From an uncultured Candidatus Saccharibacteria bacterium (lineage in GTDB: Bacteria > Patescibacteriota > Minisyncoccia > GCA-002772825): a DNA stretch of 41,766 nt. The notes under the pieces are model-generated. The model searched no databases. It was not told the DNA's origin and saw only the letters and a program-made list of their open reading frames with translations. A program made the translations under genes and the position numbers. Location of the stretch: positions 1-41,766 of the forward strand of contig CAZLLR010000002.1 in the NCBI GenBank assembly GCA_964560655.1, given 5' to 3'. Shown here one piece after another: positions 1,177-14,459 of the stretch (position 1 is the stretch's first letter; every line of letters starts with the position of its first letter).

Positions 1177-1203
1177 CAATCTCAAGGACTGTCCTTGAGA
1201 TTG
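1177..1203. repeat. REP-like palindrome P1 (caatCTCAAGGAC t GTCCTTGAGattg)
   Basis: Perfect 13-bp arms with a 1-nt centre, read directly. It overlaps the last codons and the TGA stop of the RAYT gene. Confidence 0.8.
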
Positions 1204-1856
1204 TGATTCTGGTAAGTCAGCCACTCATTAATAAAATCATCAAATTCTTTAAAATCAGCAAAATACTCTGGGAAAGCACTTTTATTAAGAACTACCGACT
1301 CTTCCCTGTTTCGCCCAATATAATCCTGATAACTTGAATATTTATAGCTATTTAACTGTTCTTTTGTCTTTTCTACATCAGAAATACCTTTTTCCTTCCA
1401 CTCTGGATCAATCAATTTGACGGGGTTTAGGTGGATATAAGCGAATAGATACTTCAAATACTCATCGTTATCCACATGAGTAGCTTTAAATACCCCTTCA
1501 AAAAGCTTCCCCGTTCTTTCGTTTTTCTTATTAAAATACATCGAGTACCCTGTGGATAACTTTTTCATAAACATCGGTATTCCTCCTTCAGTTTTCTCTC
1601 TAACCAATAGATGAAAATGGTTAGGCATTAAACAATAAACCCCAATATCTACTAAATTTTCATCATTCTTTAAATTCCGCAAGGTGACACCTAGAGAAAG
1701 GTCTGCTATTTTAACGGGTTTTAAACTATTACAAAGGATTAATAATTTTATAAACCTTTTTTTGTCATTATTATCTAAAAATATAGACCTCTTATCGTTT
1801 CCTCTATTATAAATATGATAAAATTCACCTATTGAAAAATTAAACTTACGATTCAT
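1182..1856 (-). CDS. IS200/IS605-like HUH Y1 transposase (REP-associated tyrosine transposase, RAYT-like)
   Basis: ORF of 224 aa. FYHIYNRGNDKRSIF N-terminal block, HUH motif in CLMPNHFHLLV, and the catalytic-Tyr helix FAYIHLNPVK. This pattern matches the Y1_Tnp/COG1943 family. The gene is surrounded by palindromic REP-like hairpins. Confidence 0.8.
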   Translation of the reverse strand: MNRKFNFSIGEFYHIYNRGNDKRSIFLDNNDKKRFIKLLILCNSLKPVKIADLSLGVTLRNLKNDENLVDIGVYCLMPNHFHLLVREKTEGGIPMFMKKLSTGYSMYFNKKNERTGKLFEGVFKATHVDNDEYLKYLFAYIHLNPVKLIDPEWKEKGISDVEKTKEQLNSYKYSSYQDYIGRNREESVVLNKSAFPEYFADFKEFDDFINEWLTYQNHNLKDSP

Positions 1857-2954: not shown

Positions 2955-5900
2955 TTATTGCGACAATACTTCTGCAGTTAAGTTCACTCCTGGAAGACCG
3001 CTTACACTGTAACCGTTTGTCCAGTCTGCGTGAGCATTAGCTGAAGTTGTAGTTGCGTTTGGTGACCAGATAAAGTCATCATTTGAACCAGCATCATTGT
3101 CAACTTGAGTGACATTACCCATGAATCCTGCAAGTTGAGGATATGCGGCGTCACCTTGTAGTTGAGTTGATACTGATGCTCCTGCTGCAGAACTTGCAAC
3201 AGTTGCAGTTACTTCAAAGTACCTTGTCTGTCCTGCTGGAACCTGAAGGTTCGTAGCTGTACCTGCATTATCTATGATGATATTTACATCAGCAGATGTA
3301 GGAACAGTAGCAGTATCTGAGTTCATTAACTTACCTCCGGCATTAACACCTGAAACTGGATTCGAGAATGCAGCATCAGAATAACCGTAAGCATTTAAGT
3401 TAGTGACAACAGCTGTTGTTGTAGATAGTTGTAAAGTAAATTTATACAAACCTATATCACCAGCTGAATCAGCAGTAACTTTGAATCGTAGAAGTGTCTT
3501 TGTGCCATTACTTAGAGTATTTGTAGGAACAGATACTTTAGCAACAGTAGGAACAGATTTGAACAATCTTAAGCCTTTAACAGCTGTATCAGCTGTAGAG
3601 CTTGTGTTGATTGTAGAACCTGAGTTCACTCCTGTACCTCTTGTACCTGTAGAATCACCACCATCATAATCAACTGTTACTAAGTGACCTTGTGTTGCAA
3701 GACCTGTAGTACCAATTGTTGCAAGATCAGCTTTAATTGTCATGTACTTGTCAGAATCTTTTGGAATTCTGAAAGCGCTTGTCAATGTAGATGTTGCATT
3801 ATTGGCAGTCGTGAATAGTGCTGTACCAACCTGTGCACCTGAATCGTAGTCATGCAATGTAACTCTTACAATGTCATTTCTAGATGTTGAAGCAGATGTG
3901 ATCTGCAAAGCAACTCTTGAAAGATCTATTGCTTCGTTTGTAGCATGGAACTTCAAGACACCGATAGTGTTACCTGTTGAACCAGCTACTGCTGCAGACT
4001 TAGATGAAGGACTCTTACCAGTATCAAGTGTTACTGTGAATGTTCCACCTGAAGCCAATGTTATTAGCTGACCATTTGAATCTGTAGCTGTTGGAGTAAC
4101 AGATTGATTAGATGTAAGACCAGTACCTGAGAATGTAGCTGCTGAATCAATACCCCATAGGTATTTACCTGAAGCATTTCCAGCGACGTCACATTTCAAG
4201 CCTATAGTCTTAACTGTTCCCTTAGGAACTACTAATCCTGCCCCATCAATAGTAAATGCTGTAGATGAAGCGACCGCTGAAGGATTAACAACATTTGAAC
4301 CTGTTGTTATCTGAGTAGCGCCGTCATATAAAGCACAACTTGTAAGGTTGGTAGCTGTACCATCACCTGATACACCGTAAGCTAGAGGGATTGTTGACAT
4401 CTTGATGTCTTCTCCTGAAGCTGTAGCGTCAAAGTAGTAGTTAGCGAAAGCAAATGTACCTCCGGCAACAACTGTCTGAGCAGCTGGGTCTGGGGATACT
4501 GAGATCGCTAGAGCAGCTGACTTAACAGTCATTGTGTTAGCAGAAATTGCTGATGTAGGTGTAGGCGTAATACTGTTTCCAGTAATCTGACCAGTAACAG
4601 TAGTCCAGTTTGTTGAAGGTGTAGTAGAAGCCTGAATTGTATCGTTGTTTACGAAATCAGTTCCAACTTTACCTTTCAATTGGTAAAGATGTTTACCAAC
4701 TGGGAATGTAACTGTGTCAGTGAAGGTAGCTGTACCACCTGTACCTGTACCTGCTCCATCAACTGGGCCTGCAACCACGCTACCGTTCTCATCAACTATT
4801 GTGATGTTAGTAATGTCGTTTACACCCTGTGATGTTCCTGATGATCTTACTATCAAGAAGTTGAATACTAGGCTAGCGACAGAAACCTCTTCACCTTTAG
4901 CCTCTACTAAGAAACCGCCTAATGGTTGGTTAGTAACGTTCTCTGCAACATTTTGAGCTGCAACTGTTGTAGCTTTCTGAACGTTAAGAGTACCAGCTGA
5001 TACAGTTACTTTAGAACCATCATACCATGGTGTTCCTGTAGTGAACTGTGATGAAGCGTCAGTTGCTGAAGCAGTAGACTCTCCTGAAGGAGTAATACCA
5101 TAACTGTATGTCTCTCCTGTAAGGTTCAAGTCTGTGTTCTTGTAGATATCAAAGATTATAGTTCTTCCTGAACCACCTATGATATCACCTTTAATAGAGA
5201 TCTCTTTTGAACCACCTTTATCAATAACGATACCTGAACCGAAGTTTGTAGTGTAGTACTGTCCATTTGCGCTTGCGACTACATCGTAAGCTGTACCGTC
5301 AACATAAGTCTTCAAGTTTTCAAGATCAGTAGTTCCTACTGAACCTGACTGATTCCATCTGATAGAATTCAAACGAATTTTCTCTTGTGAACCAGATGTA
5401 ACTTTAACAGAAGCGAATGTGAAACCTGTAGTACCGATCTCTTTACTGTTACTTGTGTTAGGGTCAAGTCCTCCTATTGCAGGAGTAGCTGAACCGATAG
5501 CAAGATTCATGTTTATCGTATGTCCAGCTCCTGTAATAGGAAGTGCTCCTGATACATTAGCTGAAGTGTTTACCTTTACCACTGAAAGGAAAGCGACCTG
5601 ACCTGCATAAGAACTAAGATCTGCAATCATATTACCAGCGATAGTTATTGTCTTTGTAGTTCCCGCCTTAACAACAAAAGGATCTCCTACTGTTGCTTGG
5701 TGGTTTGAGTTCAAAGTCTTAGCGATACCGATCTGGTTTCCGTTCTCGTCTAAAATGACGATTCCACCAAATACAGCGTCTTGTGCCAAACCTGTTCTCT
5801 CAACAAGGATTGAATTTACAGTAATGTCTCCGTCTGCTGAAGCTGTCAAAGCAACTTTAGTAAATGGAAGTCTTGCTGCGCTCTCAACTGCAAGTGATGC

Positions 5901-6554
5901 AACTGGCTGAGCTACAGAAGATACTGTAAGTCCTGTACCAACTGTTGGTGTTGTTGGTGTAGTTGGTGTAGTTGGTGTAGTCGGTGTAGTCGGTGTAGTT
6001 GGTGTAGTAGGTGTAGTACCTGTACATGTTCCAAAGAGAGAATTTAATTTAGCTCTTGTGGAAGGACCAACGTAACCTGTTCCTGCTGTTAGACCAACCG
6101 GGGTCAAAACATCAGAAGCATATTTCTCCTGGAATTTTATAGCAGCTGACTTTGTCAAAGAACCAAAATAACTTGATTCGTTTCCTGCTGAGCCAATTCC
6201 GCTTGAAGCAACCTGTGTAGCAGAATCTGAGTTAAGAACCTTCTGAAGGTTCATAGCGTCAGTTCCTGTATCACCTTTCTTCAAGTTCGAACCGAATGTG
6301 TATCCGCAAACTGCGCCTGTTGCAGGAGTTCCGCCTGTAACCCCAGACATCTGGGCTTGCAAAGCTGTAATCTGCGCAAGCAATGTTGCGATCTGTGTCT
6401 GAAGTTCTTCAACTGTTGCTGCACTTGCTGGAGAAACTAATACTCCACCAAACATCATAACAGCAGTCGTAAGACCTAAAGTTACAGATATTATTTTACT
6501 TAATCTAGATTTCTTAAATCTACTCATAAATTTGTTTCTAATTAATAATCTCAT
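2955..6554 (-). CDS. large cell-surface protein: signal peptide, coiled-coil, peptidoglycan-binding domain, (TTP)n linker, at least 6 divergent beta-sandwich-like modules
   Basis: ORF of 1199 aa, with an alternative start at MSRFKK (6527). Signal/anchor sequence IISVTLGLTTAVMMFGGVLVSPASA. Heptad-like stretch VEELQTQIATLLAQITALQAQM. PG_binding_1-like block GDTGTDAMNLQKVLN...GSLTKSAAIKFQEKY...GPSTRAKLN. A TPTTPTTPTTP linker follows, then about 1000 aa rich in T/S/G/A/V with recurring modules of about 130-150 aa. Confidence 0.7.
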   Translation of the reverse strand: MRLLIRNKFMSRFKKSRLSKIISVTLGLTTAVMMFGGVLVSPASAATVEELQTQIATLLAQITALQAQMSGVTGGTPATGAVCGYTFGSNLKKGDTGTDAMNLQKVLNSDSATQVASSGIGSAGNESSYFGSLTKSAAIKFQEKYASDVLTPVGLTAGTGYVGPSTRAKLNSLFGTCTGTTPTTPTTPTTPTTPTTPTTPTTPTVGTGLTVSSVAQPVASLAVESAARLPFTKVALTASADGDITVNSILVERTGLAQDAVFGGIVILDENGNQIGIAKTLNSNHQATVGDPFVVKAGTTKTITIAGNMIADLSSYAGQVAFLSVVKVNTSANVSGALPITGAGHTINMNLAIGSATPAIGGLDPNTSNSKEIGTTGFTFASVKVTSGSQEKIRLNSIRWNQSGSVGTTDLENLKTYVDGTAYDVVASANGQYYTTNFGSGIVIDKGGSKEISIKGDIIGGSGRTIIFDIYKNTDLNLTGETYSYGITPSGESTASATDASSQFTTGTPWYDGSKVTVSAGTLNVQKATTVAAQNVAENVTNQPLGGFLVEAKGEEVSVASLVFNFLIVRSSGTSQGVNDITNITIVDENGSVVAGPVDGAGTGTGGTATFTDTVTFPVGKHLYQLKGKVGTDFVNNDTIQASTTPSTNWTTVTGQITGNSITPTPTSAISANTMTVKSAALAISVSPDPAAQTVVAGGTFAFANYYFDATASGEDIKMSTIPLAYGVSGDGTATNLTSCALYDGATQITTGSNVVNPSAVASSTAFTIDGAGLVVPKGTVKTIGLKCDVAGNASGKYLWGIDSAATFSGTGLTSNQSVTPTATDSNGQLITLASGGTFTVTLDTGKSPSSKSAAVAGSTGNTIGVLKFHATNEAIDLSRVALQITSASTSRNDIVRVTLHDYDSGAQVGTALFTTANNATSTLTSAFRIPKDSDKYMTIKADLATIGTTGLATQGHLVTVDYDGGDSTGTRGTGVNSGSTINTSSTADTAVKGLRLFKSVPTVAKVSVPTNTLSNGTKTLLRFKVTADSAGDIGLYKFTLQLSTTTAVVTNLNAYGYSDAAFSNPVSGVNAGGKLMNSDTATVPTSADVNIIIDNAGTATNLQVPAGQTRYFEVTATVASSAAGASVSTQLQGDAAYPQLAGFMGNVTQVDNDAGSNDDFIWSPNATTTSANAHADWTNGYSVSGLPGVNLTAEVLSQ
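5947..6018. repeat. 9-bp tandem repeat x8 (ggtgtagtt variants) encoding the (TTP)n linker
   Basis: Read directly: ggtgttgtt ggtgtagtt ggtgtagtt ggtgtagtc ggtgtagtc ggtgtagtt ggtgtagta ggtgtagta. Confidence 0.9.
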
Positions 6555-6913
6555 TGTATTTTATCTCGTCGCGCTTCGCTCCACCTTACAGCGGATTAAC
6601 GAATGTGCGTGAGTCAATAAAACATTCACAAGATTATCGTAAGCATAAAGAAATTTAAGTTCGACAGTTCCTAAATAATTTTATGCAACTACTAATAATT
6701 ACTAATTTAATTAACCCTCATACTCCTCCATCTTTATAGACGGGAAAGCACAAGAAGAAATTACAATAAAATAAACTTTTTTCACTGACCTGAATTTCAA
6801 TCTTTTCATCCGTAAATATTTTGTTTTCAATGTGCCCTCTTTCGCTCTGCTTTACTAAGACGATACTGCAATAAAAAGACGTCCAGCCAAATCAACATAT
6901 CTAACTTAAACAC

Positions 6914-6941
6914 ATTATAAGTCGTCAAGTATCTCTTTCAA
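6914..6941 (-). promoter_or_regulatory. candidate sigma-70 promoter for the surface-protein gene (TTGAAA-16-TATAAT)
   Basis: The minus strand reads ttgaaa gagatacttgacgact tataat. It would give a leader of about 350 nt. A second candidate, TTGACT-16-TATATA, lies at 7024..7051. In AT-rich DNA such matches can arise by chance. Confidence 0.3.
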
Positions 6942-7085
6942 AATTATAATGTGGATAACTCTAGCCCTTATACTAAATAAGCCGGGTCAACGACCCAAAG
7001 CCTATATGATAAGGTCTTTAAAGTATATATTTTCACACCCCCTAAAGTCAACAAAAATACAGATAATGACACATATTATAAGGAT

Positions 7086-7127
7086 GTAAACCCGCACACT
7101 AAGCTTGCTTAGTGTGCGGGTAAACCC
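7086..7127. repeat. structured repeat element, copy A (short form)
   Basis: gtaaa CCCGCACACTAAGC tt GCTTAGTGTGCGGG taaaccc. It has a 14-bp perfect stem and shares the CACACTAAG/CTTAGTGTG arms and the gtaaaccc/gggtaaaccc flanks with copies at 8101..8160 and 14396..14459. Confidence 0.75.
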
Positions 7128-7257: not shown

Positions 7258-8070
7258 CTACTTACTAACAAAATACCTTCTCCACCTTTTATCACCCTCT
7301 TTCTCTAAGAGTCCAATATCTACCACATGGAGTAATCTACGCTGAATAGTCTTTTGACTCATCTTTGGAAAACGAGAAGAAATGTCCTTTATAGTGACAT
7401 GTCCATTCTTCTTAATAAAGTCTATAATCTCTCTTACTTGACTGTCCTTTTGAGCATTTAATACCTGATTTTTACTTAAGTCTTTTTTATTAGTATTAAC
7501 TATATCTTTATTACCAGAGTCTAAACGGTAGTTACCCCGAACAGAACTAGATCTATCATCATAGTTGCTTCTAATGGACATATTCTGCCCTTGTCCTTTA
7601 CCAAGTTGTCCTTTATGTATTGATTGTCCTTTACGCTGTCCATTACCCGTATCTGCCTGTCCTTTACCAAAAGGATTGTCCTTATGGACACTATCGGACA
7701 GCTCAGGGAATAGTTTGTCTGAAAATAATACCTCTTCTCTTTTATCGCTTTCTATAAGCTCGCTTATTTTTTCATATTCTCTCTTTAGTATCTCAAAATT
7801 TAAACCAGCGATAAAACCGCTAAGACTGGCTAAATCTAACATAGAAATCACCTTGTTTAAGGAGTCAAGTATCTCCATAAAAGAGGTTGTCTTATCTTGA
7901 GAAGTTTTATCCTTGAGAGAAACGACGTTTATTAGGATATTAACTGAAGCTTCTCTTAGTAGCCATTTAAGAGGTTCTTTGTCAGGTAAAAAATCCGTCA
8001 CCTTATATAAGGCATTTGTGATCTTCCCCACCCTTTCTGTTAAAAAAATATAACTTTCCTCATTTGCCAT
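7258..8070 (-). CDS. putative DNA-binding protein: N-terminal four-helix-bundle-like domain, KGQ-rich low-complexity linker, C-terminal winged-helix HTH
   Basis: ORF of 270 aa. The N-terminus (KITNALYKVTDFLPDKEPLKWLLREASVNILINV) resembles the pattern of 23S-rRNA-IVS/four-helix-bundle proteins. The linker is FGKGQADTGNGQRKGQSIHKGQLGKGQGQN. The C-terminus VREIIDFIKKNGHVTIKDISSRFPKMSQKTIQRRLLHVVDIGLLEKEG is wHTH-like (DeoR/MarR style). Confidence 0.55.
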   Translation of the reverse strand: MANEESYIFLTERVGKITNALYKVTDFLPDKEPLKWLLREASVNILINVVSLKDKTSQDKTTSFMEILDSLNKVISMLDLASLSGFIAGLNFEILKREYEKISELIESDKREEVLFSDKLFPELSDSVHKDNPFGKGQADTGNGQRKGQSIHKGQLGKGQGQNMSIRSNYDDRSSSVRGNYRLDSGNKDIVNTNKKDLSKNQVLNAQKDSQVREIIDFIKKNGHVTIKDISSRFPKMSQKTIQRRLLHVVDIGLLEKEGDKRWRRYFVSK

Positions 8071-8100: not shown

Positions 8101-8160
8101 GTAAACCCTCCCTTCGCTTTAGCGAAGGTCACACTAAATTTTAGTGTGAGGGTAAACCCC
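8101..8160. repeat. structured repeat element, copy B (long form with nested hairpin)
   Basis: gtaaa CCCTC [CCTTCGC ttta GCGAAGG tc] ACACTAA att TTAGTGT GAGGG taaacccc. It sits in the divergent spacer between the wHTH gene and ftsK. Confidence 0.75.
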
Positions 8161-8181
8161 GCCGAGAGGGGTAAAGTTTTC

Positions 8182-8213
8182 CGCTTCCCGCTTTTCGCTT
8201 TTCGCTTTATAAT
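8182..8213 (+). promoter_or_regulatory. four tandem CGCTTTT-type heptamers running into a TATAAT box 6 nt upstream of the ftsK ATG
   Basis: cgcttcc cgctttt cgctttt cgcttta-taat, with TATAAT at 8208..8213 and the ATG at 8220. This geometry suggests a leaderless or near-leaderless ftsK mRNA. The -35 region is poor. Confidence 0.3.
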
Positions 8214-14395: not shown

Positions 14396-14459
14396 TATAC
14401 ACCCACCCTTTGCTTTTTGCAAAGGTCACACTAAGATTTCTTAGTGTGTGGGTATACCC
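14396..14459. repeat. structured repeat element, copy C (long form), overlapping the rpsF stop codon
   Basis: tatac a CCCAC [CCTTTGC ttttt GCAAAGG tc] ACACTAAG atttc CTTAGTGT GTGGG tataccc. It has the same architecture as copy B, with compensatory changes in two stems. Confidence 0.75.

Follow-up and report, generated by a model that had tools for sequence, protein, structure and literature searches.

Three short hairpins whose stems differ in sequence and yet stay complementary lie within the 41,766-nt stretch of DNA analysed here (the window), and the question they raise is what kind of entity would keep such pairing while its letters change. The first-pass annotation had described them as a three-copy element selected for its fold, either as RNA or as single-stranded DNA, and had suggested a relationship to REP sequences. 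Our analyses of the host genome, its relatives and metagenomic data lead us to regard the three hairpins (copies A, B and C) as probable non-autonomous miniatures of a small, palindromic mobile element that belongs to the CPR/Patescibacteria and has a GIY-YIG nuclease parent. Each would consist of the two element ends only, or of the ends and a short insert.

Palindromes in the window and across the genome

Re-reading of the sequence found the three hairpins where they had been placed and with the arms ascribed to them. The cap helix varies and remains complementary in each copy (CCCGC/GCGGG in A, CCCTC/GAGGG in B and CCCAC/GTGGG in C), and the nested hairpin likewise pairs despite its change (CCTTCGC/GCGAAGG versus CCTTTGC/GCAAAGG). 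Copies B and C are indeed Y-shaped forms, which differ from A by an extra hairpin of 18–19 nt that separates the cap helix, 5 bp long, from the ACACTAA helix, and the relatedness of all three was borne out. Three matches to the pattern ACACTAA-N(1-8)-TTAGTGT lie in the window, and 100 dinucleotide-preserving shuffles put the expected number at 0.00. Folded as single-stranded DNA, A, B and C reach -16 to -18 kcal/mol on either strand, with z-scores of -5.9 to -7.6.

The count of three, by contrast, proved far too low. A genome-wide search of the host (G000; 652 kb, 37% G+C, 33 contigs, 97.7% complete) retrieved at least 13 clear copies. By contig, these were assigned to the window (three), C8 (four) and C4, C6, C9, C20 and C21 (one each); a GTCCG-capped variant was found in C4 and C29, and half-sites in C5 and C22. 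Family copies have perfect arms of 13–18 nt, a total length of 30–130 nt and a non-coding body, the interiors of the G000 copies ranging from a 4-nt loop up to about 105 nt. Among the 41 genomes searched, the arm CCCNCACACTAA had 19 matches in G000 and 15 in G010, which belongs to another family of the same class; seven genomes had one to three matches and 32 had none, the three congeners having 0 or 1. At least 120 metagenome contigs carry a short ACACTAA hairpin, and the viral contigs searched gave one weak match only, without the cap helix. The Y-shaped subfamily comprises B, C, the copies in C20 and C21 and one copy in the congener G002, that is, at least five sites in two species.

We assembled 12 distinct arm pairs from G000 and its relatives as a covariation set. 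Two stem positions, the variable cap position and one adjacent to the loop, showed all four Watson-Crick pairs, and 92.9% of the cells pair. The covariation score was 0.177 compared with 0.047 in shuffles, 0 of 500 of which reached 0.177, and it collapsed when the partners were slid. Of the 55 metagenomic copies among the matches listed, 54 have a Watson-Crick pair at the variable cap position, and in the Y-shaped subfamily the cap, the nested hairpin and the main helix are all kept with differing sequences. The compensatory changes on which the first-pass annotation had based its case for selection on the fold were thus upheld by the covariation test. Of the two forms it had allowed, the single-stranded DNA fold is the best reading and an RNA family found no counterpart in Rfam: at gathering and permissive thresholds, no family matched the hairpins, RNase P was the only match in the window, and the best score on the copies was that of a miRNA model (22 bits versus a gathering score of 101). 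Moreover, the right end of the Y form is split by a hairpin, which is awkward for a double-stranded terminal repeat and natural for a folded single strand. The G-T wobbles conflict as to the folding strand, two cases favouring one strand and one the other, so we draw no conclusion from them. Selection need not account for the complementarity of the arms, which fold-back synthesis during copying could also produce.

Insertion sites and the duplicated target

The orthologous sites were compared in the same-genus genomes G001, G002 and G003 (the congeners). The rpsF-ssb spacer that holds copy C is without the hairpin in all three, where it reads ..GCCGGTATATGA.., ..GCAGGTTTATAA.. or ..GCCGGACTATAA.. 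in place of the GCGGGTATA-(CCCAC...GTGGG)-TGTATATTATAA of G000. The site of copy A is empty in G002 (TCTTTACAACATTATAAT) and is filled in G003 by an unrelated hairpin between the same flanks, GGGTTTA-(TCCCGTCGCTC..GAGCGACGGGA)-TTTACA. At the site of copy B, G003 has GCTTTACA alone, with no hairpin, and G002 (CCCCCGTCGCTC..) and G001 (CCCCTCACCAG..) have unrelated GC-capped hairpins between the same CTTTA and TTTAC flanks. Comparison with the congeners shows copies A, B and C to be insertions relative to these genomes, and since the A and B sites are empty or otherwise filled there, both act as repeatedly used targets.

Copy B stands in tandem with a mini-hairpin, apparently a further GC-capped insertion, unrelated to the first, that entered the target once it had been regenerated. 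At this position G002 has instead a different CCCCC..GGGGG hairpin, CCCCCGTCGCTC...GAGCGACGGGGG, and the hairpin of G003 at the copy A site belongs to that same family.

The flanks themselves also had to be reinterpreted. On the minus strand the window copies read GGGTTTA-core-TTTAC, and the GTAAA and TAAACCC segments that had been taken as conserved flanks of the structure are duplicated target and not part of the fold. Of the 12 CCC-capped copies of G000, eight have TTTA beside the core, one has TATA and one TCTA, and most G000 copies show an exact 4-nt direct repeat. Among the matches listed from metagenomes, 37 of 55 distinct copies have an exact 4-nt direct repeat just outside the CCC...GGG palindrome (TATA in 13, TTTA in 11, TAAA in 6, TTGA in 2, CTTG in 2 and three others once each), and the base preceding the repeat is mostly G and the one following it mostly C in these 55. 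Judged from these flanks, the target is G-TWWA-C, of which TWWA is duplicated; comparison of the copies shows a dispersed family flanked by a 4-nt duplication at this hexamer. G000 contains 346 GTWWAC hexamers in all. The duplication of copy C is imperfect, with TATA on one side and TATA plus CA on the other.

Table 1. Positions of the palindromic elements and associated features. Unprefixed coordinates refer to the window and prefixed ones to other contigs of the host genome.
Feature	Position	Strand	Description
Copy A, core	7091-7120	-	Minimal 30-nt perfect palindrome, CCCGCACACTAAGC-tt-GCTTAGTGTGCGGG, two arms back to back; minus-strand reading CCCGC-ACACTAAG-caag-CTTAGTGT-GCGGG
Copy A, first TAAA of target duplication	7087-7090		TTTA on the minus strand; with g7086, GTTTA-C
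Copy A, second TAAA of target duplication	7121-7124
Copy B, core	8106-8152	-	Y-shaped
Copy B, cap helix	8106-8110/8148-8152
Copy B, nested hairpin	8111-8128
Copy B, ACACTAA/TTAGTGT helix	8131-8147
Copy B, gene-proximal TAAA	8102-8105		TTTAC on the minus strand, running into the conserved leader of the 7258-8070 gene
TAAA between copy B and mini-hairpin	8153-8156
Mini-hairpin in tandem with copy B	8157-8171	-	CCCCGCCGAGAGGGG
Mini-hairpin with third TAAA	8157-8175	-	CCCCgccgagaGGGG plus TAAA (8172-8175)
Copy C, core	14402-14452	-	Y-shaped, in the rpsF-ssb spacer
Copy C, cap helix	14402-14406/14448-14452
Copy C, nested hairpin	14407-14425
Copy C, main helix	14428-14447
TATA beside copy C	14453-14456		Original rpsF codons (..GGT ATA); G003 has GCCGGTATATGA
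Copy C, second duplication copy	14396-14401		Imperfect: TATA, then CA
rpsF stop codon	14441-14443	-	Inside the copy C arm
Empty target			..GGGTTTACC..
Palindromes associated with Y1 genes	1175-1205, 1916-1956, 2701-2725, 2823-2851; C9:5480-8734; C20:9215-11714
Second family, coding-free copies	C1:16720-16826, C4:5293-5354, C6:29383-29459, C8:7778-7884, C9:17047-17153, C10:21805-21881, C11:5229-5305, C12:6737-6813, C25:3043-3119		CCCGTTAGA...TCTAACGGG
Second family, copy with gene	C21:1089-1366		CCCGTTAGA...TCTAACGGG

Copies A and B enclose the gene at 7258-8070 (minus strand), which is conserved and keeps its synteny in the three congeners. Its 270-aa product has a weak N-terminal match to the four-helix-bundle family of 23S rRNA intervening sequences (E = 4.8e-4, below cut-off). 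We rejected an integron-cassette reading, with A and B as attC sites on either side of this gene, since the congeners have the gene in synteny but neither A nor B. Nothing favours the idea, raised by the first-pass annotation, that the adjacent wHTH protein binds the hairpins: its gene is conserved and syntenic in hairpin-free congeners.

Two further observations concern this part of the window. Between the four-helix-bundle/wHTH gene and a gene for a 1199-aa product (2955-6554) lies a non-coding stretch of about 530 nt (~6555-7085), which is very highly conserved across the four genus genomes, above the neighbouring spacers, contains a promoter-like TTGACT-18-TATACT pair and has no Rfam match; this may be the site of a long leader or of an RNA that annotation has missed. 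On the other side, a TATAAT (8208-8213) stands 6 nt ahead of the ftsK ATG (8220) in all four genomes, an arrangement that suggests a leaderless ftsK mRNA, and the divergent 7258-8070 gene may likewise start 6 nt past a TAAGTT box.

Copies within and in front of genes

Insertions are found near gene starts, at one gene end and in frame within pilin and cell-wall genes. As the element ends in GGG and TWWA is duplicated, ..GGGTTTAC.. is rebuilt at the downstream edge. An interrupted signal would then keep working, whether it consists of the Gly-Phe-Thr codons of a prepilin, a Shine-Dalgarno sequence with its ATG or a -35-like TTTACA, and this rebuilding of the downstream signal would allow copies to persist beside and inside essential genes.

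The clearest cases are in coding sequence, where GGGTTTAC doubles as the Gly-Phe-Thr codons of the prepilin cleavage motif G/FTLIE. In four tandem pilin-like genes of contig C8, a 95-nt copy and its 4-nt duplication add up to 99 nt, or 33 codons, in frame, giving the product ..KGFT-HTLSLALRSFLGKFTSPFFKTRKKIPNLVC-GFTLIE... A PBP1A-like gene in C4 has a diverged 99-nt in-frame copy at KGF/T in its N-terminal tail. Orthologues are free of the insert (PBP1A of G002, MLHKKIMKDKGFISIKG; pilin of G003, ..GRQGFTILEM), and among 5.8 billion proteins only the four pilin-like proteins of G000 itself matched the insert peptide. In the two diverged copies, those of pilin and PBP1A, the GFT frame alone is open and the codon differences are eight synonymous and six non-synonymous, which suggests that the insert is translated and tolerated. 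The 33 residues presumably act as a longer leader that would be cut off at the regenerated G/FT.

Two other explanations of the pilin insert were rejected. A conserved pilin leader domain does not agree with a peptide unique to G000 and orthologues without it, and translational bypassing, considered for the identical take-off and landing codons, is needless since the insert is open in frame. In the four tandem genes (C8:11808-14450), the 5' region is near-identical from part of the upstream spacer through the leader (MNNKFKIINK..) and the element, and the mature parts have diverged, a pattern suggesting that the 5' module was subject to gene conversion or was duplicated repeatedly.

Copies outside coding sequence also abut expression signals. 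The Y-shaped copy in C20 lies directly before the start of the adenylate kinase gene, and its end rebuilds GAGGG-TTT-ATG. Promoter and terminator scans gave only weak consensus matches, among them one at the edge of copy A, a -35-like TTTACA, and one at copy C, which forms a TTGCAA-17-TATATT pair upstream of ssb. At the rpsF end, the insertion of copy C brings in a new stop codon, so that ribosomal protein S6 ends in ..AGIPTH rather than in the ..AG(I/L) of its relatives.

The probable GIY-YIG parent and the proposed means of movement

A class-wide pattern search for ACACTAA arms spaced 230–360 nt apart retrieved elements of about 290 bp in three other Patescibacteria (G108, G122 and G118), the sole ORF of which encodes a GIY-YIG protein of 85–86 aa, with one stop in G118. 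ORFs of 84–86 aa with a Pfam GIY-YIG domain lie between ACACTAA arms in G108, G122, L065 and L075. The full-length form is about 290 bp long, with 20-nt perfect inverted ends, CCCC-CACACTAAT.., and one gene of 84–86 codons. A compensated arm variant, CCCCAACACTAAT/ATTAGTGTTGGGG, surrounds a GIY-YIG gene in G006, and in the congener G001 CCCGCACACTAA precedes 31 codons for a GIY-YIG N-terminus (in an open frame of 35 aa), the right arm having decayed.

We also compared arms across 80 genomic loci at which a relative of the G108 protein is encoded; the records of related loci carry the label Patescibacteria. The four closest homologues (73–100% identity) all have CCCCCACACTAATTAAGG arms, those at 64–65% identity have arms CCCCGG(A/T)ACTAATTAGG, and more distant ones have other perfect arms of about 20 nt, often at the 5' ends of tRNAs. 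Across these loci, arms and nuclease are shown to diverge together. The nearest PDB chains to the GIY-YIG proteins are the UPF0213 proteins 1zg2 (E = 1.9e-9) and 1ywl, and NCBIfam gave weak sub-threshold matches only. The G000 assembly (97.7% complete, 33 contigs) contains no intact GIY-YIG gene with ACACTAA arms, and of its two small GIY-YIG genes one belongs to another palindrome family and the other to an insertion at tRNA-Val. With no intact cognate nuclease gene in this assembly, the window copies are probably orphans or mobilised in trans.

The first of these two genes belongs to a second family, CCCGTTAGA...TCTAACGGG, that parallels the ACACTAA family: one 278-bp copy has an intact GIY-YIG gene of 86 aa, and nine copies of 62–107 nt are coding-free (Table 1). 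All ten lie exactly on the ATGAA start codon of an ORF and duplicate ATGAA (..ATGAAT-element-ATGAA-ORF), and the arms and the target are also present in G010. The other gene (C7:17600-18400) has a complete tRNA-Val(TAC) gene on one side and, upstream, a partial duplicate of the 5' part of this tRNA on the other, and on this arrangement is a nuclease element lodged in a tRNA gene. Another dispersed family is CCCAACGGCTACCGAG.., and the palindrome families of G000 number at least five.

The literature searched offered no specific account of such elements in CPR bacteria. By analogy, the closest known mechanism is that of the Ssn nucleases and their NTS repeats. Ssn proteins are single-domain GIY-YIG enzymes that bind hairpin repeats and cut single-stranded DNA only; ssn genes are flanked by NTS repeats, and NTS-ssnA-NTS resembles an insertion sequence according to the authors (Chenal et al., 2025, PMC11893778). 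The SRM/NTS consensus consists of a CGTC tag and an ATTCCC-N8-GGGAAT core, and the repeats are enriched in small-genome symbionts and rarely lie inside genes (PMC11893778). The CPR proteins, known from sequence alone, share with Ssn a single GIY-YIG domain (about 85–95 aa), a gene bracketed by repeats and the scattering of the same hairpin genome-wide, a likeness of architecture that does not imply membership of clade cd10448. In contrast to the CGTC-tagged ATTCCC..GGGAAT, the CPR arms are CCCxCACACTAA / TTAGTGTGxGGG and have no CGTC tag; unlike NTS, the CPR element has long perfect inverted ends, 4-nt target duplications and in-frame intragenic copies.

By the same analogy, we infer that the nuclease recognises its ends as a folded hairpin of single-stranded DNA, as Ssn nucleases do NTS hairpins, and that it drives copying into new sites. 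Recognition of this kind would explain why the cap helix and the nested hairpin preserve pairing and not sequence. A bolder proposal, which we offer tentatively and hold to be somewhat doubtful, is that a nuclease of about 85 residues and its own folded ends form a complete, undescribed transposon. At about 290 bp it would be the smallest autonomous bacterial mobile element known, inserting at G-TWWA-C with a 4-nt duplication and having ends evolved to rebuild the interrupted signal, be it prepilin cleavage-site codons, a ribosome-binding site and start codon, a -35-like hexamer or a tRNA 5' end.

The main rival to a nuclease-driven element is a classical MITE moved in trans by a DDE-type transposase, with the GIY-YIG gene as cargo or as a hitch-hiking homing nuclease, since a staggered double-strand cut fits the duplication equally well. 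Terminal inverted repeats with a 4-nt duplication at a near-palindromic hexamer are what such a cut leaves in the textbook case, the symmetric duplication needs no single-strand hairpin by itself, and we know of no strand-transfer catalysis by GIY-YIG nucleases. We nevertheless think this unlikely, given that the GIY-YIG gene is the only ORF within the ~290 bp of every full-length element found, that the arms change along with the GIY-YIG protein, and that the right end of the Y-shaped subfamily is split by its extra hairpin of 18–20 nt and yet occurs at multiple sites in both species. Bacterial MITEs, such as the Correia elements of Neisseria, are small and non-coding, end in inverted repeats, duplicate their target, exist in many copies and affect the genes beside them. 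The CPR family resembles them in its inverted repeats, small non-coding body, fixed 4-nt duplication, many copies and influence on adjacent genes, and differs in that its coding relative has a GIY-YIG nuclease and not a known transposase, and that the structure of the ends (including three-way junction variants) is conserved over their sequence.

The family may also be compared with the Rickettsia palindromic elements, which are reportedly short palindromic selfish DNA of a reduced genome, found between genes and in frame within them, where they are said to add a tolerated peptide. Both are intergenic as well as in frame in protein genes that are left open; however, there is no sequence relation, and the CPR family has a hexamer target with a 4-nt duplication, a protein-coding parent and copies down to 30 nt.

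It is very improbable that the hairpins are REP/REPIN-type repeats spread by the RAYT-like Y1 (HUH) transposases of G000, the relationship suggested by the first-pass annotation. G000 does have three Y1_Tnp genes, one of them in the window (1182-1856), HUH transposases recognise hairpins in single-stranded DNA, and IS608 inserts after TTAC, which resembles TTTAC. However, each of these genes is accompanied by its own different palindrome (CAAGGTG.CACCTTG; CACTTGGAGGCT.AGCCTCCAAGTG; ATGTTAGACATC; sites in Table 1) without ACACTAA arms or CCC..GGG caps, whereas it is a small GIY-YIG nuclease that accompanies the ACACTAA arms. IS200/IS605-type insertion, moreover, leaves no target duplication, as against the duplications of variable sequence in 37 of the 55 metagenomic copies among the matches listed. 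There is no GTAG or CGTC tag, and the likeness to the palindrome at 1679-1696 is short and falls within transposase coding sequence. Like REP/REPIN-RAYT and IS200/IS605 systems, the CPR family has a hairpin that is presumably recognised as single-stranded DNA, and its target is short and specific; it is set apart from them, PATE included, by the lack of a Y1 association and by duplications as varied as TATA, TTTA, TAAA, TTGA and CTTG.

We can give hardly any credence to a structured cis-acting RNA (a processing site, stabiliser, terminator or regulatory hairpin) under selection for its RNA fold, for although two helices covary, the folds are stable and 11 of 12 copies are co-oriented with the surrounding genes by flank polarity (eight of nine counting the four C8 copies once), the hairpins are not conserved at orthologous sites, where congener spacers are empty or hold unrelated hairpins, copies also occur within a divergent promoter region and within coding sequence as well as before start codons, they have neither a U-tract nor an Rfam match, and target duplications mark them as insertions. 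The copies may have secondary effects on transcripts.

The genomes of CPR/Patescibacteria rank among the smallest and most streamlined of any cells, and little mobile DNA is usually ascribed to them. In this genome, tiny palindromes have settled near gene starts, rewritten the C-terminus of S6 and lengthened both pilin leaders and a penicillin-binding protein by 33 residues. In annotation, such copies account for odd N-terminal extensions and false start codons, and for intergenic structures that seem to covary and might pass for RNA genes. Should the small GIY-YIG enzyme really move the copies, this would be a new and minimal transposition chemistry, and the family would be a source of hairpin-specific nucleases for single-stranded DNA with diverse specificities, a practical interest already raised for Ssn. 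Were nuclease and ends indeed a complete transposon that restores the signals it interrupts, the tolerance of streamlined CPR genomes for dozens of copies, essential genes included, would be accounted for.
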